A stretch of DNA of 64,000 nucleotides, taken from IMG/VR virus record IMGVR_UViG_3300046684_000205, positions 1-64,000 of that record; one strand, written 5' to 3'. Each line of letters starts with the position of its first letter. Positions within the stretch are counted from its first letter, which is position 1. The translations under genes and the position numbers were made by a program. Origin of the DNA: a virus. Below the pieces are notes generated by a model. The model was not told the DNA's origin. It did no database searches and saw nothing but the letters and a program-made list of their open reading frames with translations. Of the stretch, positions 1 to 40,379 are shown piece by piece.

Positions 1-1
1 C

Positions 2-196
2 ATGGCGTGCGGCTACGAAGGGCGCGCGATGGCCGGTGAAACGGGCGCCATCGTCCTGGCTTATCGCAACGACGACGGCGACCTGATCCACATTCGCGCG
101 AGCAAAGTCGGTGAAAACGGCATCGAGCCAGGCACTTGGTACTTGCTGAATGCCGAGGGTGAGTTCGTCAAAGCGCAGGACCAGGGCGACGAATAG
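2..196 (+). CDS. Phage protein, C-terminal fragment (ASKVGENGIEPGTWY-type tail of Gly/Ala-repeat phage proteins)
   Basis: The ORF begins at the window edge and carries a C-terminal motif common in phage proteins. Confidence 0.7.
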   Translation: MACGYEGRAMAGETGAIVLAYRNDDGDLIHIRASKVGENGIEPGTWYLLNAEGEFVKAQDQGDE

Positions 197-202
197 GAGC
201 AA

Positions 203-394
203 GTGATGAGCATTACCAACCTCAACGGCTGCCGCTTCATGGTCAGCCCCGATGGGAAGCACGCCGACTGGGTCCACCCGGCTGAGATCGCCGGCCGCTG
301 CCCGACCTGGACTGACTGCACGGATATGGACGATGCGGAGTTCGATGCCTTCATAGCCGAGCGTCGCGCAAAGTTTCCGCCGCTGGCGGCTTAA
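203..394 (+). CDS. Hypothetical protein
   Basis: AGGAG upstream; fits the co-oriented gene tiling. Confidence 0.7.
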   Translation: MMSITNLNGCRFMVSPDGKHADWVHPAEIAGRCPTWTDCTDMDDAEFDAFIAERRAKFPPLAA

Positions 395-405
395 GGAGGC
401 AAGGA

Positions 406-840
406 ATGATTCCAGTTCCGAAGCAATGGGATGAGGCCTACCTGAACGAGTGTGCCCAGGACGAGATCGATCTGGCTCGCTTACTGAGGCTCGGGAAGTT
501 CGCAGCGCCGGCCGGCCTTACGCGAGACACCGTGCTCGTCCCGGCTCCACCGAAAAGCAACGGCTTCTTCGGCAGCGCCAATAACTCGCGCACCAGGCTT
601 GGTTCCGTCGGCGAGCTGCCGCGGTGGCGCCGTGACTGGAGCGCAGCTGGCCCGCTGAGCACTGATCTTGGCCTGAGCACTTACCAAGACCCCGAAGACG
701 GGTCGGTTTCCGTTAGTGCTGGCGGTCGACGTCGCAACGTCACCGAGCGCTACGAGGACCACCCGGGCAAGGACGCAGCAACCATGGCTGCGATCGTGCG
801 AGCTGCGATCCAGAAGCTTGAGGCAGGCAACAACAACTAA
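406..840 (+). CDS. Hypothetical protein, possibly NinX-like
   Basis: AGGAGG RBS; PRWRRDWSAAGPL resembles the P..s.dW.aaGPl motif of NinX-like proteins. Confidence 0.55.
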   Translation: MIPVPKQWDEAYLNECAQDEIDLARLLRLGKFAAPAGLTRDTVLVPAPPKSNGFFGSANNSRTRLGSVGELPRWRRDWSAAGPLSTDLGLSTYQDPEDGSVSVSAGGRRRNVTERYEDHPGKDAATMAAIVRAAIQKLEAGNNN

Positions 841-875
841 CACCACAACCCAAGACGCCAATCTAGGAGATCACG

Positions 876-998
876 ATGATCCGCTTCCTTCTGCTGCACC
901 GCATCGAATGGACTGACAAGCATCCGGGCCTGATGGCTATCGGTGCCCTGCTGTTTGCCTGCCTGGCGCTGTCGCTCGCCCCTTCGGTGCCGCAATGA
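876..998 (+). CDS. 40-aa membrane peptide (not in ORF track)
   Basis: AGGAG RBS; MIRFLLLHRIEWTDKHPGLMAIGALLFACLALSLAPSVPQ; ATGA overlap with the next gene. Confidence 0.7.
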   Translation: MIRFLLLHRIEWTDKHPGLMAIGALLFACLALSLAPSVPQ

Positions 999-1117
999 AG
1001 CACGCCTACCTGAACCGCCGCCAGATCAACGCCCGGGTGTTTGTCTACGTGGTCGAGTGCATTGCCGGCGCCGCCCTTGCTGGCGTGATCCTGGCTAGCC
1101 GCGTGGGGTCAGCATGA
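995..1117 (+). CDS. 40-aa membrane peptide (not in ORF track)
   Basis: MKHAYLNRRQINARVFVYVVECIAGAALAGVILASRVGSA; ATGA-coupled on both sides. Confidence 0.7.
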   Translation: MKHAYLNRRQINARVFVYVVECIAGAALAGVILASRVGSA

Positions 1118-1254
1118 TCCGCCAAATCGCATCCGCCCTCGTCGGCCTCTCGCTGCTGTTGCTCCTGTACGCAGAAGTCCAGCGCCTCGACGACATGACC
1201 AGCGACCAGGTCGAGCAGCTGCAGCTGGAGCGCGTCGCTCGCGTAGCCCAATAA
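1114..1254 (+). CDS. 46-aa membrane-anchored peptide (not in ORF track)
   Basis: MIRQIASALVGLSLLLLLYAEVQRLDD...VARVAQ; ATGA-coupled. Confidence 0.7.
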   Translation: MIRQIASALVGLSLLLLLYAEVQRLDDMTSDQVEQLQLERVARVAQ

Positions 1255-1280
1255 CTACAACACAACAAGGAATCCAAGAG

Positions 1281-2186
1281 ATGTGGTTTAAGAACCTGCA
1301 GGTCTATCGCCTCCCCGCCCCATACGCCCTGACCGCCGAGCAGCTGGCCGAAGCACTCCAGTCGCAGTCCTTCGAGCCGGCCGGCAGTAGCGAACTGCTG
1401 CGCCAGGGCTGGGCCCAGGTTCGCGGCGATGGCTCCCCACTCGTCCACTCCGTGAACAGCCAGTTTCTGATCGCCTTGGCGACCGAGAAGAAGATCCTGC
1501 CGTCGAAGGCCGTCAACCAGGTCGCAATGGCGCGCGCCGCGGAGCTCGAGGAACAGCAAGGCTTCCCGCCCGGGAAAAAGGCCATGAAGGAGCTGAGGGA
1601 GCGCGTCGCGGACGAACTCCTACCGCGAGCCCTCTCCGTCCGCTCCGACCTGTATGCGTGGATCGATCCTGTCAACGGCTGGCTCGCCGTCGATTCCGCG
1701 AGCCCGACCAAAGCCGACGACGTGATCAAGCTGCTACTGAAGGCCGTCGACAAGCTGCCGCTGGAATCGCTGCGCGTGCAGCGCTCGCCTGTAGCGATGA
1801 TGACTGCCTGGCTGAAGCAGGACGCGTCTGCGCTCGATTACGACTTCACCATCGACCAGGATGCGACGCTGCAGGCGACCGGCGAAGGCAAAGCGCAAAT
1901 CGGCTTCAAGAACCATAGCCTTGACCCCGAGGACATTTGGCAGCACCTCTCCAGTGGCAAGCAATGCACTCGCTTGGCAATGACTTGGAACAGCCGGATC
2001 TCGTTCGTCCTGACCGAGTCGCTGACGATCCGCTCGATCAAGCCGCTCGACGTCATCAGGGAAAACGATTCGATCGCCGCGGACCAAAACGAACGCTTCG
2101 ACAACGACTTCGCCCTGATGACTGGAGAGCTGGCAAAGCTGCTTGCCGACCTGGTCGAAGCCCTCGGCGGCGAGGCAAAAGGATGA
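1281..2186 (+). CDS. rdgC: Recombination-associated protein RdgC (copy 1)
   Basis: MWFKNLQVYRL start, EKKILP, ELLPRA and DFALMTGEL motifs; 301 aa. Confidence 0.95.
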   Translation: MWFKNLQVYRLPAPYALTAEQLAEALQSQSFEPAGSSELLRQGWAQVRGDGSPLVHSVNSQFLIALATEKKILPSKAVNQVAMARAAELEEQQGFPPGKKAMKELRERVADELLPRALSVRSDLYAWIDPVNGWLAVDSASPTKADDVIKLLLKAVDKLPLESLRVQRSPVAMMTAWLKQDASALDYDFTIDQDATLQATGEGKAQIGFKNHSLDPEDIWQHLSSGKQCTRLAMTWNSRISFVLTESLTIRSIKPLDVIRENDSIAADQNERFDNDFALMTGELAKLLADLVEALGGEAKG

Positions 2187-2368
2187 TCCGAGTCCGCCCG
2201 CGGCGTATTCCCGCGGATGAAACGCCGGCGCAACGCCAGGCGCGCGAGGACCGCGAAGCCGCCCGGGTCTACGGCATGAATCGCCGCTCGAGCAAGTACT
2301 ACAGCGATCTGGATGCAATCAGCGCTGGCGAAAAGCCCGGCACCCTCAACACCAACAAGACCAAATAA
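2183..2368 (+). CDS. Hypothetical protein
   Basis: ATGA overlap with the rdgC stop; MIRVRPRRIPADE... Confidence 0.6.
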   Translation: MIRVRPRRIPADETPAQRQAREDREAARVYGMNRRSSKYYSDLDAISAGEKPGTLNTNKTK

Positions 2369-2381
2369 ACAGGAGAGCCTC

Positions 2382-3983
2382 ATGACCACGAACAGCGAGA
2401 ACACCCCGGCACGCCGCGCCGAAGACCACCTTCCGGACGCGAAGATCGACTGGAACAAACCGGAGGCGCCGGCGGTTCCGCTGTCGAGCACTGCCGGTGC
2501 CGCGCGCCAGGGCGGCAATACGAGCGACGAGGGCGACTTTGCAAGCCGCAGCCGCGAGGAGTTGATCGACTACATCCTCTACCTTCGCAAAGCAGTTGAC
2601 GCTCCCATCCCGCCACTCACCGCACCAGCACCGCTAACCAGCCGTCAAAAGTTCGTAAATGCCATGATGGAAAACGCTGAAAAGTGGTCCGGGTCGGCTG
2701 CACCAGCACCACAGCAGGGCGAGAGCATCGAGATCACGGATACGGACAGCGCCCGCGCTTTTCTGCTCCAGTGGATGGTCGCCAACTTCCCCAGCGACCA
2801 AAGCTTCGGCGTCTATATCCAGACCCAGCTGGCCGGCGACTTCGCTTACCAACTTGCAAAAGCCCTCGCTGCCAAGGCTGCGCCAGCCGCCCCGGTGCAG
2901 ACCTTGCAAACCGATCTGTCGAAACGCCTGCGAAATGCGGCCAAAGCCTACGGAGAACTCGGCTCGACAACGCTGTTCACCTTCGATGTTCTGGCCGCTG
3001 CCGACGAGATCGATCGCTACTACGGCGGCATGCTGGCTTGGAAGCAGACCGCCGAGAAGAAAGACCGCGACTGGAACGCCGAGCGCATGGGCCGCGTCAA
3101 CGACCGCATCGTATCCAATCTGGCCGCCCCGGTGCAGACCGCCGATCAAGGCGAGCCGAACATGCTGTGGGACGCGGAGGATTCCGAGAACTGCTACGGC
3201 GACGGCCCGGAGGACTTTGCCAACAACTACGCATCGAATTGCATGATGACCGGCGAGGAAGCGGAGGTAGGCGTGCTGTGCGCCTACCGTGGGCACAACC
3301 GCACCATGCGCATCGTCGTGTCGAAGGACGCGGATTCGGACAAGCCGGTTTCGTGGTCGTGGGTTGGCGAAGAGCCTGCTGCCAGTGTGGCCGCTCCTGT
3401 GCAAGCAGAGCAGGCACATGCAGAGCCGGTGGCATGGATGAATCCTGAAACGCTTGATGTGATCCACGACACCCGTAAGCGCGCGTGGGAAAGCGACTTT
3501 GGCATGGGCGGAAAGGCTAAGGCGGCTGGGTACACTTGCCGGCTCGTTGCCCCCGCACTCCCCGCCCAGGCAGAGCAGGTAGAAGCAGTGCGAGCGGCCG
3601 ATGAGCAATTTCCGATCCAGAACACGGATCAGGCCCGCGCATTCCTGACCAAATGGATGCGCGCCAATTTCCCTACTGATCGCACGTTTGACCGCTACAT
3701 TGCCGAGCACCTCGCAGGTGACTTCGCATGGCAGCTCGCCAACGCTCTCGCTACTAAGGAAGCAGCAGCCCAGGTGCCGGCAGCAGAAGATGTGCGAGCG
3801 AAGGCGCTGGAAGATGCGGCTTTCATCTGCGAGGCGAAGCAATCGACCGATACGGACTGGGACACCAGCTTCTGGAACCAAGCCGTTCAGTCATGCGCCC
3901 ACGCTATCCGCAATCTCGCAGCTCCGAGCACTACACCCAGCAATGACACTAGCGCCCTTGGTGATACTGGAGGCGCGAAATGA
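2382..3983 (+). CDS. Mosaic multidomain early protein with a duplicated ARAFL..WM.ANFP.D..F..YI...LAGDFA.QLA.AL domain
   Basis: AGGAG RBS before ATG 2382; short domains separated by Ala/Pro/Gln linkers. Confidence 0.85.
   Translation: MTTNSENTPARRAEDHLPDAKIDWNKPEAPAVPLSSTAGAARQGGNTSDEGDFASRSREELIDYILYLRKAVDAPIPPLTAPAPLTSRQKFVNAMMENAEKWSGSAAPAPQQGESIEITDTDSARAFLLQWMVANFPSDQSFGVYIQTQLAGDFAYQLAKALAAKAAPAAPVQTLQTDLSKRLRNAAKAYGELGSTTLFTFDVLAAADEIDRYYGGMLAWKQTAEKKDRDWNAERMGRVNDRIVSNLAAPVQTADQGEPNMLWDAEDSENCYGDGPEDFANNYASNCMMTGEEAEVGVLCAYRGHNRTMRIVVSKDADSDKPVSWSWVGEEPAASVAAPVQAEQAHAEPVAWMNPETLDVIHDTRKRAWESDFGMGGKAKAAGYTCRLVAPALPAQAEQVEAVRAADEQFPIQNTDQARAFLTKWMRANFPTDRTFDRYIAEHLAGDFAWQLANALATKEAAAQVPAAEDVRAKALEDAAFICEAKQSTDTDWDTSFWNQAVQSCAHAIRNLAAPSTTPSNDTSALGDTGGAK
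2886..3140 (+). repeat. 18-bp exact direct repeat GCCGCCCCGGTGCAGACC (2886-2903, 3123-3140)
   Basis: Read directly; encodes the AAPVQT linker. A degenerate copy lies near 3390. Confidence 0.9.
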
Positions 3984-4270
3984 GCCTGCCTGCATACGGC
4001 ACCGCACCCATCCGCTGCGGTAAGACGAAGTGTCAATGGAAGGGTTATGAGACGGACTTGACTTCCGTGCCGCACAAGACGATCAAGACCGCAACGCAGT
4101 CGGCATGCCCTTCTTGCGGCTGCACGAGCTACATGTTCATGACGGAGCGTCAAATTGCGACGTGGGAGCGCAGCAAGGCCGAGGTCAACGTCAATCAGTC
4201 CAGTGGCGCCCCGAGCACTGCTGAAGCAAGCAAGGCGAGCGATAACGCCGCTAGCGGGAGCGATGCATGA
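3980..4270 (+). CDS. Small zinc-finger protein
   Basis: CGKTKC and CPSC pairs; ATGA-coupled. Confidence 0.7.
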   Translation: MSLPAYGTAPIRCGKTKCQWKGYETDLTSVPHKTIKTATQSACPSCGCTSYMFMTERQIATWERSKAEVNVNQSSGAPSTAEASKASDNAASGSDA

Positions 4271-5172
4271 CGAAGCCGCGTTTATTTGTCAGCTTTAGTG
4301 GCGGCAAGACTTCCGGCTACATGGCCAAACTGATCAAAGACCATTGGTCGGATCTGTACGAGATCGTCGTTGTTTTTGCAAACACCAGCCGCGAAGACGA
4401 AAAAACCCTGATCTTCGTGAACGAGTGTGATAAGCGATTCGGCCTGAACGTGGTTTGGATTGAGGCCGAAGTTTTCCACGGCGAGGCTACCTCTAGCGGC
4501 TACCGTATCGTGACCTTTGAAACGGCATCCCGCAATGGTGAAGTCTTCGAAGAAGTAATTAAAAAATATGGCATTTCTAACGCGGCATTCGGCCACTGCA
4601 ACCGCGAAATGAAGCTCAACGCCATGCACAGCTACGTACGCGATGGGCTGGGCTGGGACGACTATTGCACAGCGCTCGGCATCAGAATGGACGAGCAACG
4701 CCGCGTATCGAAGCATGCAGGGGTCAACAAGATCCTGTATCCGCTAATCGATACCTGGCCGACCGATAAACAAGATGTTGCCAACTTTTGGGAAAACCAG
4801 CCTTTCCAGCTTGACCTGCCTGAGCACCTAGGGAACTGCGTAACCTGCTTTAAAAAGTCAGATCGCAAGCTGTTTCAGGTGTATGCCGACAATCCCTACG
4901 CTTTTTTGTGGAATGCGCGCATGGAAGCCGAGTACGGCTGGCATGGAGCGCCCTGGTACGGCGAGCCGAATGAAGCTGGACATGCGCGCACTTTCTGGCG
5001 CGGGAACCGCTCGACCGAGCAAGTGCTGGCGCAGGCACGGGAGCTTGGCGTGCAGCCGTTCATCCCGATCCGCGAAACCCGCAGCATGGATGCCCGTCAG
5101 TTCGGGCTGGATTTTGAGAATGGCGGATGCAGCGAGAGCTGCGAAGCGTACCCAATGGAGGATGCAGCATGA
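4267..5172 (+). CDS. PAPS-reductase-like (PP-loop) protein with conserved cysteines
   Basis: SFSGGKTS PP-loop, FANTSRE, CNREMK, GIRMDE, GNCVTCFKKS and C-terminal CSESC. Confidence 0.85.
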   Translation: MTKPRLFVSFSGGKTSGYMAKLIKDHWSDLYEIVVVFANTSREDEKTLIFVNECDKRFGLNVVWIEAEVFHGEATSSGYRIVTFETASRNGEVFEEVIKKYGISNAAFGHCNREMKLNAMHSYVRDGLGWDDYCTALGIRMDEQRRVSKHAGVNKILYPLIDTWPTDKQDVANFWENQPFQLDLPEHLGNCVTCFKKSDRKLFQVYADNPYAFLWNARMEAEYGWHGAPWYGEPNEAGHARTFWRGNRSTEQVLAQARELGVQPFIPIRETRSMDARQFGLDFENGGCSESCEAYPMEDAA

Positions 5173-7334
5173 ACGAGAACAATAACATCGCCCCTACAGG
5201 CACAGAAGCAGGCTTTGACCTGGACAAGCTGGAAGCACTGCTGAATGCCACTACCCCCGGGCCTTGGGTCCGCAACTTCGGCAACTGGAATGTAGTCGCC
5301 CCGAACGAGTCGAATGGCGGACTTGACCGTTACCATGTGTGCACCACCGAAGGCCGCGACTATGAGCAGATGTCACGCAATGCTGACTTCATCGTAGCGG
5401 CAAAAACACACATGGCCGCCATGATCGCTCTCGCTCGCCGAGCTGCACCGGCTACCTCGGACATGCCGGATACCACGGCAAGCGCGAGCGGGGACGACCC
5501 GTTACTCAGCTTGATCTGGCGCATTAACGATACTGTCCTGAAGGCTTTGCCGAATCACCCTGACGCAGGCGTGAGACAAGCGCGGAATACCAAGTCCCCC
5601 GCCGAAGTGCTGGTCAACGTCGAATCACTCACCCGTTACTACAGGGAGGCTGCTCGCCGCGCCGCCCAGCCGGTACAGGCTGGAGAAGCGGTAGACCTGC
5701 CCGCAAAGGGAGAGCTTCTGACCGAGGACCAGCGCGACAAGATCGAAGCCGCCTTGCGCAAGGCGTGGCCCGCAGCCTTTAAAGACGCGCCCAGCAAGGC
5801 GATGGGCCAACTTATTTGGGCAACGGAGCAGGCATGCTTCGCATCTGCTGCCCGCGCCAGTCTTGCCCCGGTATCCGCCCAGCCTATCGCTGGAATGCAC
5901 TGGTGTCCTTCGGCGGGCCAATGGTCGCTCACCATCTATGCGGACGTTCCCAAGATCGCGGGCGAAACCTACAAGCTCTATGCAGCCCCGGTATCCGCCC
6001 AGCAGGGCGCAGCCAAAGCGGCAACAACTGTTGAAAAGGATGGCTGCAGGCTGTGTCTCGGCGCGAAAGGCGGCGTACCCGGCAATGAAAACGTGATCGG
6101 TGGCGTCGTCGTGTGCGACTACTGCTCATCCACGTTGATGGACATGAAATCGGCGGGCTGGTTTGGCGCAGACAAAGCACCGGCAGAGGGTTCGCCGCAA
6201 GACAACTGCACCGATTGCGGCGGCAGCAGGGCGCATAAGGGCGACAAGGCGCGCGATTGCGAAAGCTGCGACGGAACGGGGCGCGGCTGGGCGCAGCGCG
6301 AAAACGTAGTCAGAGCACCGGCATCCGGCTATGTGCACCTGGCTGGCGAAGATGTGCTCGGAGGCGCGAAACGCATCGCCGAGAACGTGCGCCATTGGGC
6401 ACCGGCAGCGCAGGGGTGCCCGAGTTGTGGCCGAGCGCCCGGTGAGCGCCGCGACGAATGCGAGCAATGCCCCGAGGCACCGGCAGCGCAGGCTGTGGAT
6501 CTGTCGAAACTGCCGCTGCATTTCAAGGAAGGCATCGAGAACGGCGGATACTACCTTGCCACCGATGTTATCCGCGCACTCGCTCTCGCCGCATCCCCTG
6601 CCAGCACTCCCGAGGCAGCGCCCGAGCAGCAACTGGCGACCGCCGAGGCTCTAGCTGATGAAGAACTGGACGCTATCTTCATGCCCCTGATGCCATCACT
6701 CCCAGCGCCTTACGCACTGCGTATTTATGGCCGCGAAGTCGAAGCCGAGGTAGCTCGCCGGTTCCGCGCGCAGGGCGGAAACACGAACGACAGCAGCGCC
6801 AATCTCGCCGCTCCTACTGCTGGAGCAGCGACGACCAGCGAGGATGCGCGGGATGCGAATAGCAACTTAATCGCGAAGATGCGCGAAATGCTGGACATCC
6901 AAGGGCAGAGCGGCACCTGGAATTGCAACCCCTACATGCACGGCATGTACAACGGCATGGCTTACATGCTCGCAATGGTTGACGGAACAGAACCGTGTTT
7001 CCGCAGAGCGCCAGTCAAGTGGCTCGACAAGCCCGCAGAGATGTCTACCGCTGCGAAGGATGTGCTGAACGAGCGCAGCCGTCAGGTGAAATCCGAGGGC
7101 TGGTCGCTTTCCCACGACGACGCGCACGAAGGCGGGGAACTTGCACTGGCAGCCGCGTGCTACGCAGCTCATCACATCTATCCCAACATCCTGAATATCT
7201 GGTCTTGGTCGCCAGAGTGGTGGAAGCCGGCCGAGCCGCGCCGCAACCTCGTCAAAGCTGGCGCGCTGATCCTGGCCGACATCGAGCGCATCGATCGCGC
7301 AGCCATGCGCGCTACCCAGCAGGAGGGCGAGTAA
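5169..7334 (+). CDS. Ead/Ea22-like mosaic polyprotein with Zn fingers and a C-terminal ERxRQ/HDD/WWKP helical domain
   Basis: N-terminal LDKLEAL..ATTPGPW...NADFIVAA; three CxxC-pair modules; start ATGA-coupled at 5169. Confidence 0.85.
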   Translation: MNENNNIAPTGTEAGFDLDKLEALLNATTPGPWVRNFGNWNVVAPNESNGGLDRYHVCTTEGRDYEQMSRNADFIVAAKTHMAAMIALARRAAPATSDMPDTTASASGDDPLLSLIWRINDTVLKALPNHPDAGVRQARNTKSPAEVLVNVESLTRYYREAARRAAQPVQAGEAVDLPAKGELLTEDQRDKIEAALRKAWPAAFKDAPSKAMGQLIWATEQACFASAARASLAPVSAQPIAGMHWCPSAGQWSLTIYADVPKIAGETYKLYAAPVSAQQGAAKAATTVEKDGCRLCLGAKGGVPGNENVIGGVVVCDYCSSTLMDMKSAGWFGADKAPAEGSPQDNCTDCGGSRAHKGDKARDCESCDGTGRGWAQRENVVRAPASGYVHLAGEDVLGGAKRIAENVRHWAPAAQGCPSCGRAPGERRDECEQCPEAPAAQAVDLSKLPLHFKEGIENGGYYLATDVIRALALAASPASTPEAAPEQQLATAEALADEELDAIFMPLMPSLPAPYALRIYGREVEAEVARRFRAQGGNTNDSSANLAAPTAGAATTSEDARDANSNLIAKMREMLDIQGQSGTWNCNPYMHGMYNGMAYMLAMVDGTEPCFRRAPVKWLDKPAEMSTAAKDVLNERSRQVKSEGWSLSHDDAHEGGELALAAACYAAHHIYPNILNIWSWSPEWWKPAEPRRNLVKAGALILADIERIDRAAMRATQQEGE
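5865..6003 (+). repeat. 19-bp exact direct repeat GCCCCGGTATCCGCCCAGC (5865-5883, 5985-6003)
   Basis: Read directly; 120-bp (40-codon) spacing; encodes APVSAQ. Confidence 0.9.
6398..6492 (+). repeat. 17-bp exact direct repeat GGCACCGGCAGCGCAGG (6398-6414, 6476-6492)
   Basis: Read directly; 78-bp spacing; brackets a CxxC..CxxC module. Confidence 0.9.
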
Positions 7335-7493
7335 ATGAGCCGGAACCAACGTGAAGGCCGCTACGCAGGCAAACTCTACGCCCACCACTGGCGCAGCCGT
7401 TACTATCGCCGCCCTGGCGAGTACACCGCAGCGATTGCACCGTACATGGCGGCAGTCGCCGACAGCAGAAAGGAGCAATCCCATGTCCAATAA
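7335..7493 (+). CDS. 52-aa basic hypothetical protein (not in ORF track)
   Basis: TAA-ATG junction, AGGAGG upstream; MSRNQREGRYAGKLY... Confidence 0.6.
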   Translation: MSRNQREGRYAGKLYAHHWRSRYYRRPGEYTAAIAPYMAAVADSRKEQSHVQ

Positions 7494-7614
7494 CCTGAAC
7501 CAAGCCCTGCACGCAGCCATGCGACAGCAGACACGCGTAGCAAGCCAGTTCGCCGCGCACTGGCGCGAAGCAACTGCATGGCAGCATCAGAAAGGGCCGC
7601 AGCATGGAAAATAA
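7483..7614 (+). CDS. 43-aa hypothetical protein
   Basis: AAGGAG RBS; MSNNLNQ start shared with the next gene. Confidence 0.55.
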   Translation: MSNNLNQALHAAMRQQTRVASQFAAHWREATAWQHQKGPQHGK

Positions 7615-7945
7615 CCTGAACCAAGGCGCGAGCATTGAAGCCGAGCGCGCAGACTTCGAAAAAGCCGTGCTGAACATCACTTGCGCAAATGCTGACTCAC
7701 TCAAGCGCGACGAAGACCGGCCCGAAGACTACGACGATTACGTGGTCTCGACCTACTGGCAATTCTGGCAAGCCGCCCGCCGCACCCCTGCTGACGCTGT
7801 AGGTGCTGGAGAGCTGCCGCCGCTGCCGGAGGTTCCGAGGCACTGTTCGAATGCAGGCGTGACCGCTTACACCATTGACCAGATGCACGAATACGGCCGC
7901 CAGTGCATCGCCGCTGATCGCGCCCAGCGCAAGGAGACGCCATGA
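7604..7945 (+). CDS. Hypothetical mosaic protein
   Basis: ERADFE...WQFWQAARR and LPPLP...YTIDQMHEYGR modules typical of lambdoid early genes. Confidence 0.75.
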   Translation: MENNLNQGASIEAERADFEKAVLNITCANADSLKRDEDRPEDYDDYVVSTYWQFWQAARRTPADAVGAGELPPLPEVPRHCSNAGVTAYTIDQMHEYGRQCIAADRAQRKETP

Positions 7946-8454
7946 TCTGGCCCACCATCCCCTTCAAGCCGCACGTGCCGCGCTGCCCGAAGTGCAACCA
8001 GTACCTGCCTGACCGCTGTACCTGCAACGGCATGAGCATCGAGCAGCGCCGCAATAGCGAATCCTACCCTGACGAAGTCATGCAGGCTCGCGCAACACCT
8101 TGGGGCCTCGGCCGCACCATGATCGTGGCTACACCCACCGGCCGCCGCACAGGTCTGCATCCGGCTCTCGCCGTGGCTTACGGCCAGCCGGCGCCGAAAT
8201 GGCAGCTGCACTTCATCGGCACGGACTTCGGCGATCCCGAGGAGCGGGTGCTGGCCGTCCTCGGGCGTCACCCCGACAGCCCGGCCGGCTGGGGCTGCGG
8301 CCAGGTCGACCTCGACATCAACAATACCGGCTTCCTGCACCGTACTGCCTCCGGCAACGCCCGCCAGCGCCGCCGCCAGATCCGGATCTGGAAGCGCCAG
8401 GGCTTCACCGTCACGCAGTTCAACGTTCACACCCGCGAAAGGATCACGCGATGA
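7942..8454 (+). CDS. Hypothetical protein with N-terminal Cys cluster
   Basis: AAGGAG RBS, ATGA-coupled; CPKC..CTC. Confidence 0.65.
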   Translation: MIWPTIPFKPHVPRCPKCNQYLPDRCTCNGMSIEQRRNSESYPDEVMQARATPWGLGRTMIVATPTGRRTGLHPALAVAYGQPAPKWQLHFIGTDFGDPEERVLAVLGRHPDSPAGWGCGQVDLDINNTGFLHRTASGNARQRRRQIRIWKRQGFTVTQFNVHTRERITR

Positions 8455-8849
8455 AAATCACCACACCCGACGGCCGCGTCCGTATCCAGACTGAAGATGC
8501 CGACGTCTCCATCCTGATGGAGGAAGGCGAGACCGCACAGCAGACGCTGCTGCGCAGTGCCCGGTTGCTCTACGCCAGCGCCGAGTACAACATCCAACGC
8601 GCCCAGTTCCGTGAGCTGGCGGCCGCCAGCTTGGGGCCGCCGCTGGAGATCGAACTGCTTGGCAACTGCGTGATGGTCGGAGAACGTGGGCTTTACCGCT
8701 CGATCTCGGCCGAAGAAGGCGAAACGCCAGCTGCAGCCCTGCGCCGTGTCGCCAAGCAGGAGCGCGAGCAGGCGGCCAGCGCGACCGAAGAACACCTTGA
8801 GGCAGCTGCGGTCTTCGAACAAGCTGCCCTTCAACTGGAGAAGAAATGA
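8451..8849 (+). CDS. Hypothetical protein with internal duplication (EEGET..LR twice)
   Basis: ATGA-coupled at both ends. Confidence 0.7.
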   Translation: MKITTPDGRVRIQTEDADVSILMEEGETAQQTLLRSARLLYASAEYNIQRAQFRELAAASLGPPLEIELLGNCVMVGERGLYRSISAEEGETPAAALRRVAKQEREQAASATEEHLEAAAVFEQAALQLEKK

Positions 8850-9169
8850 GCCTCGATGTCTACCTTGTTGCCGAAGACGGCGAAGCGCTGTACACCAGCA
8901 ATATCACCCACAACCTTGGCCGGATGGCCGAGGTGGCCGGTATCTACGAGTGCGTGTGGCGACCCGACGAGAGCGGTTTTACGAAGGCCGGCCAGCTGCG
9001 CGAGCCGCTGCGCGTGGCGCTCGCCGACATGGTGACGCGGCCGTCGTATTACGAGCAGTTCAACGCACCGAATGGCTGGGGCAAGCTCGAGCACTTCCTG
9101 CTGTTCTGCGCCAAGTATCTGGAGGCGTGCATCGCTCACCCGGAAGCCAGCGTCGATGTCAGCCGATAA
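8846..9169 (+). CDS. Conserved phage hypothetical protein (NITHNL...PNGWG)
   Basis: Recognisable widespread phage family; GGAG RBS. Confidence 0.8.
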   Translation: MSLDVYLVAEDGEALYTSNITHNLGRMAEVAGIYECVWRPDESGFTKAGQLREPLRVALADMVTRPSYYEQFNAPNGWGKLEHFLLFCAKYLEACIAHPEASVDVSR

Positions 9170-9178
9170 GGAGAGACC

Positions 9179-9481
9179 ATGATCGCCCAATATCTTGACC
9201 TGGCCAACGGCCACCTGACCGAGCAGACCTTCAACGAGCTGCAGCGGCTCTTCCAGTACAACAGCAGTCCGCTACACCTCGGCTGGCCGGCCATGACCAT
9301 CGTGACGCACGATAACGGCGCCTTCGTGACGGTGCCCTACGACTACTCGCTGCAGCAGGGCGAGGCCGTGCCTGCAGACCTCGCGCGTGTCCTGGCAGCA
9401 GCGCGCCTGCGTGACGCCACCCTGATCCGCTTCGACGCCGACGGCGCCGTCGATCCCACCCTCCCTTTCCATGAATGGTGA
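9179..9481 (+). CDS. DUF5983-like protein
   Basis: LDLANGHL...IRFDADG....LP...W pattern. Confidence 0.65.
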   Translation: MIAQYLDLANGHLTEQTFNELQRLFQYNSSPLHLGWPAMTIVTHDNGAFVTVPYDYSLQQGEAVPADLARVLAAARLRDATLIRFDADGAVDPTLPFHEW

Positions 9482-9484
9482 TAT

Positions 9485-9817
9485 ATGACTATCCTAACCC
9501 GCAAAGAGTACATGAGCTCACATACTCATCTCGTCAGCGCCGACCCGGCTGAGCGCGCCGCGCTGCACCGTACCTACTACGCTCAGTTCGTCAATCAGTA
9601 CACGGTAGCCTCTGTCGTCGGCTTCATCGGTGCCGATGCGCTGCGCAAGTCGAGCGACCAGCACCTGAACGATATTCCGCTCGAGCGGTGGGACCGTGCA
9701 GCTATGGGCATGCCAATGGCACTATCGTTCAAAGCGGCCGGCGACTCCGCGACGAAGGCCGGCCTAGTGTGCGTGGCCAAGGAAGCCGCGCGCCAGTGGC
9801 TGGAGAGCCAGCCGTGA
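9485..9817 (+). CDS. Hypothetical protein
   Basis: HRTYYAQFV...HLNDIPLERWD...VCVAKEAA; fits tiling. Confidence 0.75.
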   Translation: MTILTRKEYMSSHTHLVSADPAERAALHRTYYAQFVNQYTVASVVGFIGADALRKSSDQHLNDIPLERWDRAAMGMPMALSFKAAGDSATKAGLVCVAKEAARQWLESQP

Positions 9818-9966
9818 CCGCCTGGAACGTCTACATCAACAACCGGAAGATCGACACGGTCTTCTACACACCTGACTGCGACGCCGAGTACGTGCGTCGC
9901 TCCCTGATCGACCACAACGGCTACGACAGCCGGATCGTGGTACGTCGCTCGCAAGGATCCAAATGA
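9814..9966 (+). CDS. 50-aa conserved phage protein (WNVY...IDTVFY...YVRRSLIDH)
   Basis: GTGA overlap; GGAG RBS. Confidence 0.7.
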   Translation: MTAWNVYINNRKIDTVFYTPDCDAEYVRRSLIDHNGYDSRIVVRRSQGSK

Positions 9967-10232
9967 CCATCCCCACCAACCTCACCCACGCCGAAGTCGG
10001 CGCCTTCCTCATGGCCGTCGGCCAACACATGATCGATCATGACGTGTGCGCCGAGGCTGTGGTGCAGCCGGAAGATGTGCGCGACAACCTGCCCTACGCC
10101 GAGAATCTGGCGCGCAGCATGATCGATGCCTACATCTACAAACCGATGCACCCGGGCCGCGCCCTTGAGATCCTATCCAACCTCACGCTGGAGGAGGCGG
10201 TCAGCTTTATCCGGCCGCCGAAAGGTCTGTGA
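9963..10232 (+). CDS. Hypothetical protein
   Basis: ATGA-coupled. Confidence 0.7.
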   Translation: MTIPTNLTHAEVGAFLMAVGQHMIDHDVCAEAVVQPEDVRDNLPYAENLARSMIDAYIYKPMHPGRALEILSNLTLEEAVSFIRPPKGL

Positions 10233-10621
10233 TGCTCAACTACGCCCTCACCGTCAAACACGACCGCGGCATCGTCCACATCCACACGCCGGCAGCCAGC
10301 GACGATGCCGCGCGTGCCATCGTCATGGCTGCCGAGCGCTGCCCCGAGCGCGCGATCCGCAAGGTGCGCGCCTACGACGCCGACGGCTTCGAGCTCCGTG
10401 TGCACGGCCGCCGACGCACGTTCTCACACAACCAGTTCAATATGCGTGAGAACTTCTCGAAGGACGGCCAGAACCGGCCCGACAAGGTGCCCACGCGCTG
10501 GGAGATCCAGCTGCCCGGCGAGGTGCGCTGGCGTCGTGTCTACAGCACCCGGCACACCGGGCTCCGCTACAGCATCCTCGACGGCCTGAAGGTCGTCGTT
10601 TTACTTCCGGAGGCAGTATGA
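10229..10621 (+). CDS. Hypothetical protein
   Basis: Coupled at both ends; KVPTRW...RWRRVY motif. Confidence 0.7.
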   Translation: MMLNYALTVKHDRGIVHIHTPAASDDAARAIVMAAERCPERAIRKVRAYDADGFELRVHGRRRTFSHNQFNMRENFSKDGQNRPDKVPTRWEIQLPGEVRWRRVYSTRHTGLRYSILDGLKVVVLLPEAV

Positions 10622-10848
10622 ACGAAACCCGTCTCGAAGCGGCGCGCAGCGCTGCACTGGAGTTCGTATCGGCATGTGGCAACCTGAATATGGCCCGTAC
10701 CGCGCTGGCCCAAGCTGAGGACGACTCAGCTCATGCTGGGCGCGAGCTGGCTGGTGTCGACCTGGCGCGCCAGTCCATCTCTACCGCCGAAGCCGCCGTG
10801 CGCGGCAAGGCCGAGGTTCTGCGGCTTGCGCTGGGAGCGCTGGAATGA
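10618..10848 (+). CDS. Hypothetical helical protein
   Basis: GGAGG RBS; ATGA-coupled. Confidence 0.65.
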   Translation: MNETRLEAARSAALEFVSACGNLNMARTALAQAEDDSAHAGRELAGVDLARQSISTAEAAVRGKAEVLRLALGALE

Positions 10849-11087
10849 TCACCTACCTGATTACCGAACCCGACCAGGCCGGCCAGTGCCGCATCGTCGC
10901 GCGCCACCACGGCCCGCACTTCAAGCCCGACCTCAAGAATTACCACGAGGCGCCGACGGCCTGGCTTGACGCCGGCATCATGGACAGCCGCGGCAAGCTG
11001 GTCTGCCTGTCCAACTCCGAGCACTTCAAAGACATGCAGGCCGACGAGCCGCTGGCGGCCGGCCTGACCTACACCTGCGAGGACTGA
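10845..11087 (+). CDS. Hypothetical protein
   Basis: ATGA-coupled. Confidence 0.65.
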   Translation: MITYLITEPDQAGQCRIVARHHGPHFKPDLKNYHEAPTAWLDAGIMDSRGKLVCLSNSEHFKDMQADEPLAAGLTYTCED

Positions 11088-11088
11088 A

Positions 11089-11286
11089 ATGAATAAACCT
11101 ATCCTGCGCCCGTCTGTTGTGCCCGATCTGAAGGGCAGCTACGGGCCTGAAATCTACTTCGACCCGCAGCCTGACGAGGAGTGGCCCGAGGGCTGCTGGG
11201 CCTGCTGGATCCCCGATGGCGATACCTATCACGGCGCGACGCCGAACGACGCACTGGCAGCCTGGGAGGAGGGCCAAAAGCGATGA
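11089..11286 (+). CDS. Hypothetical protein, weak HicB-N-like motif
   Basis: WACWIPD...HGATPNDALAAW. Confidence 0.55.
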   Translation: MNKPILRPSVVPDLKGSYGPEIYFDPQPDEEWPEGCWACWIPDGDTYHGATPNDALAAWEEGQKR

Positions 11287-11435
11287 CCCCACAAGACCGC
11301 AAGGAATTCGCCGCCTACCTGAAAGGCTGCACTGACAACCAGGTGCTGGGCGTGCTGGAAAAGGAGCGTGAGGCCGGTCGCCAGGACTATGCCCATCTCG
11401 CCGAACTCGAGGCATCGAAGAGGAATCTGGTATGA
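11283..11435 (+). CDS. 50-aa hypothetical protein
   Basis: ATGA-coupled; MTPQDRKEF... Confidence 0.65.
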   Translation: MTPQDRKEFAAYLKGCTDNQVLGVLEKEREAGRQDYAHLAELEASKRNLV

Positions 11436-11638
11436 GCCGTCTCGCACACGCCGCCATCGGCACATCCGGCATGGAAGCCGGGAAGGAGGAGCTGTCGGCG
11501 AAGGCCCAGCTCGAGATCCGCGACGCCAGGAGCATCCAATCGCAGACCGGCTGCACCTGGTCCGAAGCCTTGCGCATCGCCGCCGGCAAGGCGCACCCGG
11601 TCGAGAAGTTCGCCGCCAACACCTGGAGGAACCCATGA
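11432..11638 (+). CDS. Hypothetical protein
   Basis: ATGA-coupled. Confidence 0.65.
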   Translation: MSRLAHAAIGTSGMEAGKEELSAKAQLEIRDARSIQSQTGCTWSEALRIAAGKAHPVEKFAANTWRNP

Positions 11639-11907
11639 CCATCACCCGCGCCCAAGCCCGCCAGTACGTCGCCCACGGCGTCGACGACGCCGCCCAGCAC
11701 TGCCAGCCCAAGGACGTGCCCGACCACGACCGGGTGCGCTATGTCGGCTACGACGCCGGCTTTGTGCCGATGGTCGTCGCCGTCTGGAGCTGCCTGCCCG
11801 GCTGCGAGATCGATGCCGACGAGGCCGAAGACCTTGCCACCGACCTGCTGATCGAACTGAAGTGGTTCGCGGCCGGCGCCGGTACCGAAGCCATTTTCGT
11901 TCTGTGA
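11635..11907 (+). CDS. Hypothetical protein
   Basis: GGAGG RBS; start at 11635 (MTITRAQ). Confidence 0.65.
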   Translation: MTITRAQARQYVAHGVDDAAQHCQPKDVPDHDRVRYVGYDAGFVPMVVAVWSCLPGCEIDADEAEDLATDLLIELKWFAAGAGTEAIFVL

Positions 11908-11917
11908 AAGGACACCC

Positions 11918-12130
11918 ATGACCCGCGAAGAACAGCAGCAGTACATCGAGAGCTGCCTCGAATCGCAGCGCAAATATCTGATGGACCATCTCGACAAGGT
12001 GCCAGAAAACTGGGACGGCATCGAGCTGCGCAACTGGTTTGCTGATGTTGCTGTCAATGGCTGCCGCTACAAGATGGAGCGCAAACGCGCTCGTGACTAC
12101 CAGAACGACATCATCGTTCATAATCTGTGA
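11918..12130 (+). CDS. Hypothetical protein
   Basis: VPENWDGIELR motif; flanked by junction repeats. Confidence 0.75.
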   Translation: MTREEQQQYIESCLESQRKYLMDHLDKVPENWDGIELRNWFADVAVNGCRYKMERKRARDYQNDIIVHNL

Positions 12131-39803: not shown

Positions 39804-40379
39804 ATGAACTTCGCAGAATATCCGGCCCTCGCGGCCCGCACTGAAAAAGAACTGCCAACCAGCTTCCTGCGCATCGAGCACGCGTCGCTTGGCCTCATCA
39901 CCGAGATTGGCGAGATCGGCACTCTCGTCAAGCGCATCGCCATCTACGGCAAGTCGCTGGACAGCGTCATGGACAAGGGCGAGGATAGTGGCAAGTCGTA
40001 CCGTCAGCTGCTCGGCGAGGAGATCGGTGACGTGCTCTGGTACCTGCCGATCATCACCAGCGAACTCGACGCGAACTACGTGTTCGAGGATGTACGCCTG
40101 ACAGCCCGTACCGGCTTGCCGCTGACCAACCTGACCCGTCGTCTGTCGATCGCTGCAGGTCGCGTCGCCGATTACGTCGAGAGCGAGGCCATGCATATGC
40201 TACAGGACGTCAACCTGGTCGACGAGGTGTGCGCCATCCTGCATTATCTGGTCGACCTCGCAGGCCTGGCCGGCCTCGACATCGTCCAACTCGCCGCTGA
40301 CAACATCGCCAAGCTGCGCAAACGCTACCCGGAAGCCTACAGCGACCTGGCGGCTGAAGAGCGCGCCGACAAGGCTTGA
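39804..40379 (+). CDS. MazG-like nucleotide pyrophosphohydrolase
   Basis: GLITEIGEI, EEIGDVLWY, NIAKLRKRYP. Confidence 0.85.
   Translation: MNFAEYPALAARTEKELPTSFLRIEHASLGLITEIGEIGTLVKRIAIYGKSLDSVMDKGEDSGKSYRQLLGEEIGDVLWYLPIITSELDANYVFEDVRLTARTGLPLTNLTRRLSIAAGRVADYVESEAMHMLQDVNLVDEVCAILHYLVDLAGLAGLDIVQLAADNIAKLRKRYPEAYSDLAAEERADKA

Follow-up and report, generated by a model that had tools for sequence, protein, structure and literature searches.

The window analysed here is a stretch of 64,000 nucleotides (nt), positions 1 to 64,000 of the IMG/VR virus record IMGVR_UViG_3300046684_000205, from a soil phage whose complete genome (G000) has 93,478 bp. At 5169-7334, on the plus strand, it holds a mosaic gene, the sole long plus-strand open reading frame (ORF) at the locus, which encodes a protein of 721 amino acids (aa), P0001. 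We counted in P0001 about 11 small modules (zinc ribbons, small domains of helical or mixed type, and a widespread helical domain at the C-terminus), separated by short linkers rich in Ala, Pro, Gln, Ser and Thr; an earlier note, made from the bare letters of this DNA, had put their number at about ten. We argue that the DNA of these linkers probably provides joints for the homologous exchange of in-frame domain modules between phages. The product itself, judged from the position of the gene, is likely to be an early, non-structural 'beads-on-a-string' protein.

The start of the gene at 5169 agrees with the N-termini of all relatives (MxxxTPTGTEAGFDLD); an alternative in-frame ATG at 5127 would make it overlap the upstream gene. 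The ATG at 5169 itself overlaps the TGA of a PAPS-reductase-like gene (ATGA), an arrangement of translational coupling, and a Shine-Dalgarno sequence, GGAGGA at 5157-5162, lies 6 nt 5' of it. The plus-strand ORFs around 5169-7334 have no matches to structural proteins, and the mosaic gene sits upstream of the replication genes. We detected no promoter-like site inside it on either strand, and the lone plus-strand terminator-like site is upstream of it.

Two exact repeats lie within the gene. The 19-nt repeat (5865-5883 and 5985-6003, spacing 120 nt, in frame) encodes APVSAQ, and its two copies bracket a 34-aa module containing Cys and Trp (aa 239-272). The 17-nt repeat (6398-6414 and 6476-6492, spacing 78 nt, in frame) encodes APAAQ, and its copies bracket a 21-aa CxxC...CxxC ribbon (aa 416-436). 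Each has only two copies in the 64 kb, even allowing three mismatches for the longer and two for the shorter repeat, and shuffled sequence gives on average 0.09 and 0.12 matches, respectively. The GCACCGGCA core occurs also at 6177-6185 and 6315-6323 (repeat family D5), and ARRAA occurs twice in P0001 (aa 89-93 and aa 161-165). These results uphold what the earlier note had read in the sequence: both exact repeats with spacings that are multiples of three, one small module within each pair, two further sites of the core (given there as near 6177 and 6314) and the double ARRAA.

Ordered linkers and variable modules in related phages

We compared the gene with 17 related viral contigs (their loci are numbered L) and several database proteins (numbered P). 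Linkers were defined by peptide patterns, and the family considered has 22 ORFs, from 18 records and the window. The exact 19-mer is present in 14 viral contigs, always in frame in a long ORF and with differing protein flanks. BLASTN of positions 1-12000 of the window against the loci gave a chain of islands of 25-60 nt, with 90-100% identity, that fall on the linkers and leave the modules between them unmatched (5184-5240, 5415-5475, 5648-5704, 5846-5885, 5977-6014, 6472-6500, 6573-6643, 6753-6857 and 7285-7340). The linkers follow a single fixed order, L0, L1, L2, L3, L5, L6, L7 and C-end, in 22 out of 22 ORFs. Each slot has its own DNA sequence of 25-57 nt, which makes eight joints with eight sequences and no evident common core. 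What surrounds them changes from one ORF to another: the 22 copies of L3 are flanked by 20 different sequences on the left and 18 on the right, the 21 copies of L5 by 16 and 20, and all 11 copies of L6 are distinct on both sides (11 and 11). The architecture differs in every one of the 22 ORFs, and the modules found in the same slot vary in type (zinc ribbons, helical segments) and in length, from 17 aa to more than 150 aa.

The closest cases show where these differences begin and end. P0002 (635 aa) differs by two substitutions from aa 273-721 of P0001 (449 aa). With the N-terminal 272 residues it has only short stretches in common (IAPTGTEAGFDLDKLEAL, AAQPVQAGEAV and ARASLAPVSAQ), its upstream modules being different, and it reads ARASLAPVSAQQGAAK, where the 19-nt repeat is represented once and the intervening 40 codons are missing. 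P0003 (510 aa) has the zinc-finger block in common; its RHWAPAAQAVD corresponds to one copy of the 17-nt repeat, the 26 codons of the zinc ribbon being absent. In both P0002 and P0003, the breakpoints are known only at the protein level. P0004 (433 aa, with DUF551), encoded at L001 in a 59.9-kb phage, matches a 74-residue stretch at 99%, from AAQPVQAGEAV to ASLAPVSAQ, and its match to module M3 is bounded exactly by L2 and L3. P0008 has in common only the CxxC module that follows the second APVSAQ; this module, M5, is present in P0008, P0165, P0166 and P0167 at 65-82% and in other contexts. Module M8 is found in L002 at 94% DNA identity, preceded there by a different upstream module. The slots enclosed by the duplicated linkers are also filled differently, with other small modules between the two APVSAQ copies in L003, L008 and L009, and other modules between the two APAAQ copies in L002, L005, L010 and L015.

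Across all gene pairs we obtained 1391 high-scoring segment pairs (HSPs) with a median of 33 nt, of which 52 have at least 90 nt. Of the ends of these longer shared blocks, 51% lie 15 nt or less from a listed linker, compared with 19% of random positions (p 2e-5), and the linker list is incomplete, which biases the test against finding such an excess. The earlier note had set beforehand that module boundaries in relatives were to be compared with the repeats: they fall on the repeats and on at least six further linkers, and the architecture is far from invariant. The colinear order in all members, which are phages from similar habitats, might also be expected if the linkers were slow-evolving remnants of a common ancestor gene whose modules had diverged beyond recognition, with no exchange at all. 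We consider this very unlikely, since modules that occupy one slot are unlike in length and type (zinc ribbon against helical; 17 aa against more than 100 aa), identical modules stand behind different neighbours, P0002 is unrelated to P0001 before L3 and departs from it by only two substitutions after L3, and linker-carrying genomes, four of them detailed below, share no DNA with the replication module of the window.

The array is not always contained in one ORF. It is split into two in L002 (5545-6348 and 7090-7545, the second starting just before L6) and in L011 (8898-9677 and 9626-10765, overlapping in different frames), showing that a single polypeptide is not obligatory. Broader searches added few members. 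The 17-mer has 30 matches in viral contigs, among which only L038 (the contig of L002) and L043 match the gene elsewhere; the remaining ones are probably due to chance. An exact 24-mer matched one contig in a metagenome scan, from the same phage as L011, and a codon-blind pattern matched one contig of a Limnochordales metagenome-assembled genome in a genome collection. The Burkholderia-type proteins P0007 and P0053 have the same bead-and-linker build with other linkers.

Table 1. Joints and modules of the mosaic gene, in order along the window. Percentages are identities; the loci are those of the comparison set.
Feature	Position	Strand	Observations
Joint L0 (PTGTEAGFDLDKLEA), conserved 5' end of array	5193-5237	+	87-100% identity island, 10 loci; codons nearly invariant
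Module M1 (aa 24-86)	5238-5426	+	P0164 84% over aa 11-108; other modules in P0002, P0003, L002-L015
Joint L1 (ALARRAAPA...DTTASAS)	5427-5489	+	90-100% identity island, 11 loci
Module M2 (aa 108-162)	5490-5654	+	no DNA match in any locus; replaced in P0002, P0003
Joint L2 (RRAAQPVQAGEAVD)	5655-5696	+	90-97% identity island, 10 loci; codons kept, including rare GTA, GGA
Module M3 (aa 177-227)	5697-5849	+	99% protein, 94% DNA identity to module of P0004/L001
Joint L3 copy 1 (ARASL-APVSAQ), holds 19-nt repeat 5865-5883	5850-5883	+	100% over 28-36 nt, 12 loci
Module M4 (aa 239-272), optional slot between L3 copies	5884-5984	+	missing in P0002 and most relatives (reading RASLAPVSAQQGAA)
Joint L3 copy 2 (APVSAQ-QGAA), holds 19-nt repeat 5985-6003	5985-6014	+	repeat and island
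Module M5 (aa 283-335), CxxC...CxxC	6015-6173	+	phrog_13824 match; replaced in P0003
M6/M7 (aa 336-410): KAPAEGSPQD lead-in, DnaJ-like CxxCxGxG zinc module, next segment	6174-6398	+	common to P0003
Joint L5 copy 1 (APAAQ), 17-nt repeat	6398-6414	+	
Module M8 (aa 416-436), 21-aa CxxC...CxxC ribbon, optional slot between L5 copies	6415-6475	+	missing in P0003
Joint L5 copy 2 (APAAQ-AVD), 17-nt repeat and 8 nt	6476-6500	+	
Module M9 (aa 445-472)	6501-6584	+	no DNA match in any locus
Joint L6 (LAASPASTPEAAPEQQ)	6585-6632	+	89-98% identity island, 12 loci; codons kept
Module M10 (aa 489-547)	6633-6809	+	partly in L011, L002 (6753-6856, 88-90%); otherwise unmatched
Joint L7 (APTAGAATTSEDARDA)	6810-6857	+	90-97% identity island, 9 loci; codons kept
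Module M11: helical hairpin and ~95-aa all-helical core (aa 621-717 = 7029-7319)	6858-7298	+	
C-end joint (AAMRATQQEGE, stop, next ATG)	7299-7340	+	island and codon conservation

Linker conservation in DNA and across phage backbones

The codons of the linkers are nearly invariant across loci, including the parts that lie outside the search pattern and the joints that were found by peptide pattern. A codon-blind search for APVSAQQGAA identified 13 viral contigs, each with at most one synonymous change from the window in the APVSAQ part. When residues are identical, their codons are also identical at 88.6% of the linker positions and at 61.7% of the module positions. Codon identity between the window and L008 is 85% in linkers against 63% in a conserved flanking gene (1281-2186), and with L012 these values are 87% and 66%; with L002, a close relative, they are 88% and 86%. 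The linkers keep rare codons, such as GTA (relative usage 0.04), GGA (0.03), AGT (0.05), CTT (0.05) and GCA (0.08), and also use GCT, CCT and ACT; all eight have a relative usage of 0.03-0.08. The GC content at third codon positions (GC3) is 0.71 in the mosaic gene and 0.63 in its linkers, against 0.86 in the reference set, made of the replication genes (32931-54831) and the PAPS-reductase-like gene. Codon bias does not explain the conservation of the linker codons, because the reference GC3 is 0.86 while the linkers use rare codons. The gap in GC3 fits a separate, horizontally exchanged origin of the early region.

This excess of synonymous conservation bears on a second account, in which the linkers are conserved as peptides, either polyprotein cleavage sites or docking motifs, and the modules vary by illegitimate recombination filtered for in-frame function, with no part for DNA homology. 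The linker peptides are indeed strongly conserved and recur after Gln (VSAQ/QG, PAAQ/AV, RAAQ/PV), many of them ending in AQ followed by Q, A or P. For some polyvalent phage proteins, processing by a peptidase domain of their own has been suggested (PMC5512222), and illegitimate recombination is the favoured general model of phage mosaicism (PMC3029335). However, selection on a peptide does not predict that linkers should exceed modules and the flanking gene so strongly in the retention of synonymous sites, rare codons included. Furthermore, Pfam shows no peptidase domain in P0001 or in 20 relatives, and the arrays of L002 and L011 are split into two ORFs. Nothing in the analysis points to cleavage of the product, which the earlier note calls a polyprotein. 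On balance, we find conservation at the protein level alone an improbable explanation and favour exchange at DNA joints.

The linkers also travel between phages that are otherwise different. Five linker-carrying contigs are complete or nearly complete genomes according to CheckV. Only the one of 87.8 kb matches the 20-kb replication region of the window (at 75-91%), and the other four, of 93.7, 59.5, 66.2 and 59.9 kb, do not match this region in DNA at all. Hence, the linkers are common to phages with unrelated backbones. The stretch is also partly present in nine rhizosphere metagenome runs. In the four runs whose contigs we mapped, the linker bins had a summed contig depth several-fold above that of the window's own modules (X1: 83-106 against 5-16). 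Some run contigs connect one linker with another across other sequence, one of which holds the 13-codon mini-module of L010, and run contigs cover most of the module-linker-module junctions of the window. The raised depth at linkers and the linker-to-linker contigs indicate that many variants co-occur in one sample. These runs were available as contigs, which record presence only and do not make rare deletion junctions visible; some runs may be the source of the window, and several of the contig 'joints' have undetermined letters between their two sides.

Since every sequence in the comparison is a metagenome contig, the linkers occur in multiple copies in the samples and contigs end at them, the mosaics could have been created by short-read assemblers jumping between phages at shared linkers of 30-57 nt. 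We attach very little probability to such artefacts. The linkers are shorter than typical reads, and contigs from four runs cross the junctions of the window, for example at 5427-5818, 5985-6431, 5915-6500, 6422-6614 and 6610-6843. Architectures also recur, with P0003 on three contigs, P0010 on four and L011 identical to L049 of another collection, and the frame is kept in every case.

Proposed homologous exchange at the linkers

From these comparisons we infer that homology-dependent crossover is the mechanism by which the modules are exchanged, and that the modules may act as separate effectors on host targets. In co-infecting phages, homologous recombination would cross over within linker islands, and a pair of crossovers would replace a single module, or several adjoining ones, with both frame and register preserved. 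The sequence of the joint, being specific to its slot, would preserve both frame and order. Where a linker is duplicated (APVSAQ twice, APAAQ twice), unequal exchange between its copies could add or remove an optional module. Repeated exchange, through the conversion tracts that come with it, would even out the sequences of the linkers, and the modules would go on diversifying. For phage recombinases elsewhere, relaxed homologous recombination has been documented (PMC3945230).

Several points weigh against this proposal. No recombination event was directly observed in the contigs, and Pfam models found no recombinase of the RecA, RecT, ERF or Sak4 type in the genome. There is no clean one-step indel, in that the relatives with single-copy forms of the repeats differ in other modules too. 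All relatives are metagenome assemblies, mostly from one group of rhizosphere samples, and most loci were found via the exact 19-mer, which biases that joint towards identity and leaves the other joints and the codon-blind search unbiased. The suggestion of the earlier note that linker-encoding microhomologies act as recombination joints thus stands as far as the comparison goes, in the presence or absence of modules from repeat to repeat in relatives, and not as an observation of recombination itself.

The short exact direct repeats that bracket cassettes recall site-specific systems of the integron or shufflon kind, in which a dedicated recombinase would act on the repeats. The complete 93.5-kb genome has no tyrosine or serine recombinase (PF00589, PF00239), the eight joints have different sequences with no evident common core, and a repeat search of the window found no inverted repeats or attC-like arms at the linkers. 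We give a system of this kind almost no chance of being the explanation. The lack of a recombinase and of attC-like repeats, together with joints that are specific to their slots, fits homologous rather than site-specific exchange, and the 'integron-like' array of the earlier note survives as an analogy only. In integron cassette arrays and the R64 shufflon, a dedicated site-specific recombinase acts on sites of a single kind, and what is moved or inverted are whole ORFs or segments, respectively. The mosaic gene is like them in being an array of interchangeable cassettes delimited by short repeats; it is unlike them in that its cassettes are in-frame domains and that the joint differs from slot to slot.

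A bolder version of exchange at DNA joints is one that we hold rather unlikely as a whole. In that version, the linkers would be maintained as mutually orthogonal DNA joints, one per slot, and unrelated lineages of one habitat would share a pool of effector domains assembled in frame and in order. The scheme would be recombinase-free and addressed by homology, and either second-order selection or homogenisation driven by exchange would keep the joints identical down to their rare codons. As for the role of the protein, the one that we favour, with less than even confidence, is that of a carrier of several small host-directed effectors, as its gene position, translational coupling and bead-like build would suggest.

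The origin of phage mosaicism is an old open question, opposing homologous exchange at conserved 'linkers' to random illegitimate joining followed by selection, and convincing linkers have been scarce. Conserved 'boundary' or 'linker' sequences were reportedly put forward by Susskind and Botstein, and by Clark et al. on HK620, within the modular theory of phage evolution. Such sequences are reported not to be identifiable at most mosaic boundaries (PMC3029335). In the mosaic gene we do find short near-identical DNA between non-homologous segments, as in the proposed sites of homologous joining (PMC3029335), and the breakpoints of shared segments do lie at conserved sequences (the 51% against 19%, p 2e-5, given above). 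Unlike what the theory described, there are at least eight ordered joints within one reading frame, they encode inter-domain linkers and keep the frame, and they occur in unrelated backbones. Such a dense ordered set of linkers within one gene, at domain boundaries and in co-occurring phages with unrelated backbones, makes the question directly testable.

Other phage proteins have some of these traits. In the gp38 adhesin of T2/T6-type phages, conserved glycine-rich motifs (GRMs) in strict synteny alternate with variable segments, and experimental exchanges occurred within or near the conserved GRMs (PMC3157838). There, the motifs form the structural core of one virion adhesin domain and the variable loops come from a restricted palette (PMC3157838), whereas the mosaic gene has flexible Ala/Pro/Gln linkers, whole unrelated domains of 17 to more than 150 aa, and an early, non-structural character. 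The polyvalent proteins of Iyer et al. 2017 (PMC5512222) also put many unrelated domains of variable architecture on one phage polypeptide. A role in phage-host conflict was proposed for them, and they are often packaged in the virion, with coding genes adjacent to late ones; neither 'linker' nor 'shuffl-' occurs as a term in the text (PMC5512222). Their signature domains, the peptidase among others, were not found by Pfam in our protein. Like lambda Ea22 and P22 Ead, the mosaic gene is a large, sequence-diverse gene of the early region (PMC7093339, PMC10834534); unlike them, it matches neither the Pfam Ead_Ea22 family nor the solved Ea22 domain, and its phage has no integrase. In the literature searched, the coverage of which is incomplete and does not prove absence, we came across no account of an early multidomain phage gene that contains ordered linker joints conserved in DNA. 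Phage endolysins are built of two or three domains whose functions are known, and we know of no ordered set of DNA-conserved linker joints in them. They resemble the mosaic gene by their intragenic mosaicism, with domains recombined in many combinations (PMC9371310, PMC3314691).

Module identities and neighbouring genes

The joints mark the natural boundaries of dozens of small 'dark-matter' phage domains, evidently treated by phages as independent functional units, and the set of modules makes a shortlist for host-takeover or counter-defence screens. Genes of this kind are also a trap for short-read assembly and homology-based annotation. NCBIfam, Pfam and PADLOC gave no function for P0001. 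The only Pfam match was a weak, sub-threshold one to DnaJ_CXXCXGXG in M6/M7 (E 1e-4, below the cut-off), and PADLOC, whose library is made of defence and not anti-defence proteins, matched nothing; the anti-defence payload suggested in the earlier note is a conjecture. Among 20 family members, the sole Pfam matches were DUF551, in one relative, and a weak Prok-E2_E, in another. Zinc ribbons resembling those of Lar-type restriction alleviation (CPFCGG...C..CGA...WNRRA) were seen by eye in L008:4060-6663 and L014:5230-6081; they had no Pfam match at E<=0.01 and were not used. The N-terminus was described earlier as Ead/Ea22-like, and this was not borne out. The Ead_Ea22 profile (PF13935) matched neither P0001 (E<=0.1), nor aa 1-100 (E<=10), nor the six-frame translation of the 93-kb genome (E<=10), and phmmer with P0001 against all PDB chains (E<=1) returned only a chance-level match to a tail tube and none to the solved Ea22 C-terminal domain.

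The C-terminal core (aa 621-717) is widespread. It matches 15,633 representative proteins (50% clustering) at E<=1e-3, lying at the C-terminal end in most of the 150 matches listed, which are proteins of 103-635 aa. Nine PHROG families, which differ widely in length, match the last ~100 residues of P0001, in each case with their own C-terminal end, and the core is present in many phages of Pseudomonas, Caulobacter, Rhodobacter, Burkholderia and enterobacteria. It follows the pattern ERxRQxxxEGWxxxHDDxHxxGEL...WPWxxxWWKP...EIERxDR. Conserved acidic residues (E, HDD and EIExxD) are present in the family alignments A1 and A2. No Pfam family matches it in P0001.

Its AlphaFold2 (AF2) model is a helical domain with a predicted local distance difference test (pLDDT) score of 95. 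The best VIA match of the model is 2p06_B (AF_0060), with Z 6.0, a root-mean-square deviation (rmsd) of 3.7 over 75 aa and 1.2 above the next row. We take AF_0060 to belong to the all-alpha nucleoside triphosphate (NTP) pyrophosphatase superfamily. Foldseek gave template modelling (TM) scores of 0.40-0.44 to chains of DCTPP1/RS21-C6 (dCTPase) at non-significant E>3, and weak rows for viral NTP pyrophosphatases (NTP-PPases) also appear. All these values are too low to be relied on for helical bundles. Fold searches of the PDB gave no significant match for the domain, and the protein atlas only unnamed clusters. At the level of sequence, no MazG/NTP-PPase family of Pfam or NCBIfam matched P0001 or its C-terminal 177 aa, and a profile of 56 homologues of the domain found nothing relevant among PDB sequences. 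The MazG-like C-terminal domain proposed in the earlier note is therefore retained as a weak resemblance of fold (VIA and Foldseek) and not as a match to the sequence family, and an all-alpha NTP pyrophosphatase fold is possible given the model. The last module of P0005 looked MazG-like by eye; Pfam did not confirm it, and it was not used as evidence. A separate MazG-like gene is found at 39804-40376, with a match to a MazG-like PHROG.

The phage also encodes a helicase, a primase, a PolA-type polymerase, a ligase, a thymidylate synthase and an SbcCD/Mre11-Rad50-like pair. From its gene content it is probably virulent; it has no integrase and therefore probably no lysogeny decision to bias. 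The gene immediately upstream of the mosaic gene (4267-5172, plus strand) has a PAPS-reductase domain (Pfam E 7e-7; phrog_424 E 1e-47) and matches the PADLOC SspD model (E 5e-10). Its product may be a DNA- or nucleotide-modification enzyme of the phage.

Similar islands occur outside the mosaic gene. Two genes upstream, a 556-aa ORF (2313-3983, plus strand) has the same pattern with a linker set of its own (AAPVQT and others). Its islands, of 90-100% identity in 5-14 loci, are at 2600-2640, 2694-2727, 2866-2903, 3123-3148, 3387-3431, 3549-3600, 3742-3770 and 3917-3983, with unmatched sequence between them. On the other side, the C-end joint is also a gene junction, since the codons of QQEGE include AGGAGG, which serves the following gene as ribosome-binding site; the ATG of that gene comes directly after the stop. 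The small genes downstream (7335-7945, plus strand) have islands of 92-100% at 7469-7504, 7610-7660, 7772-7831 and 7906-7937 (in L005, L006, L009, L010, L014 and L015), which suggests that the pattern of joints and cassettes extends, at the level of genes, past the long ORF.

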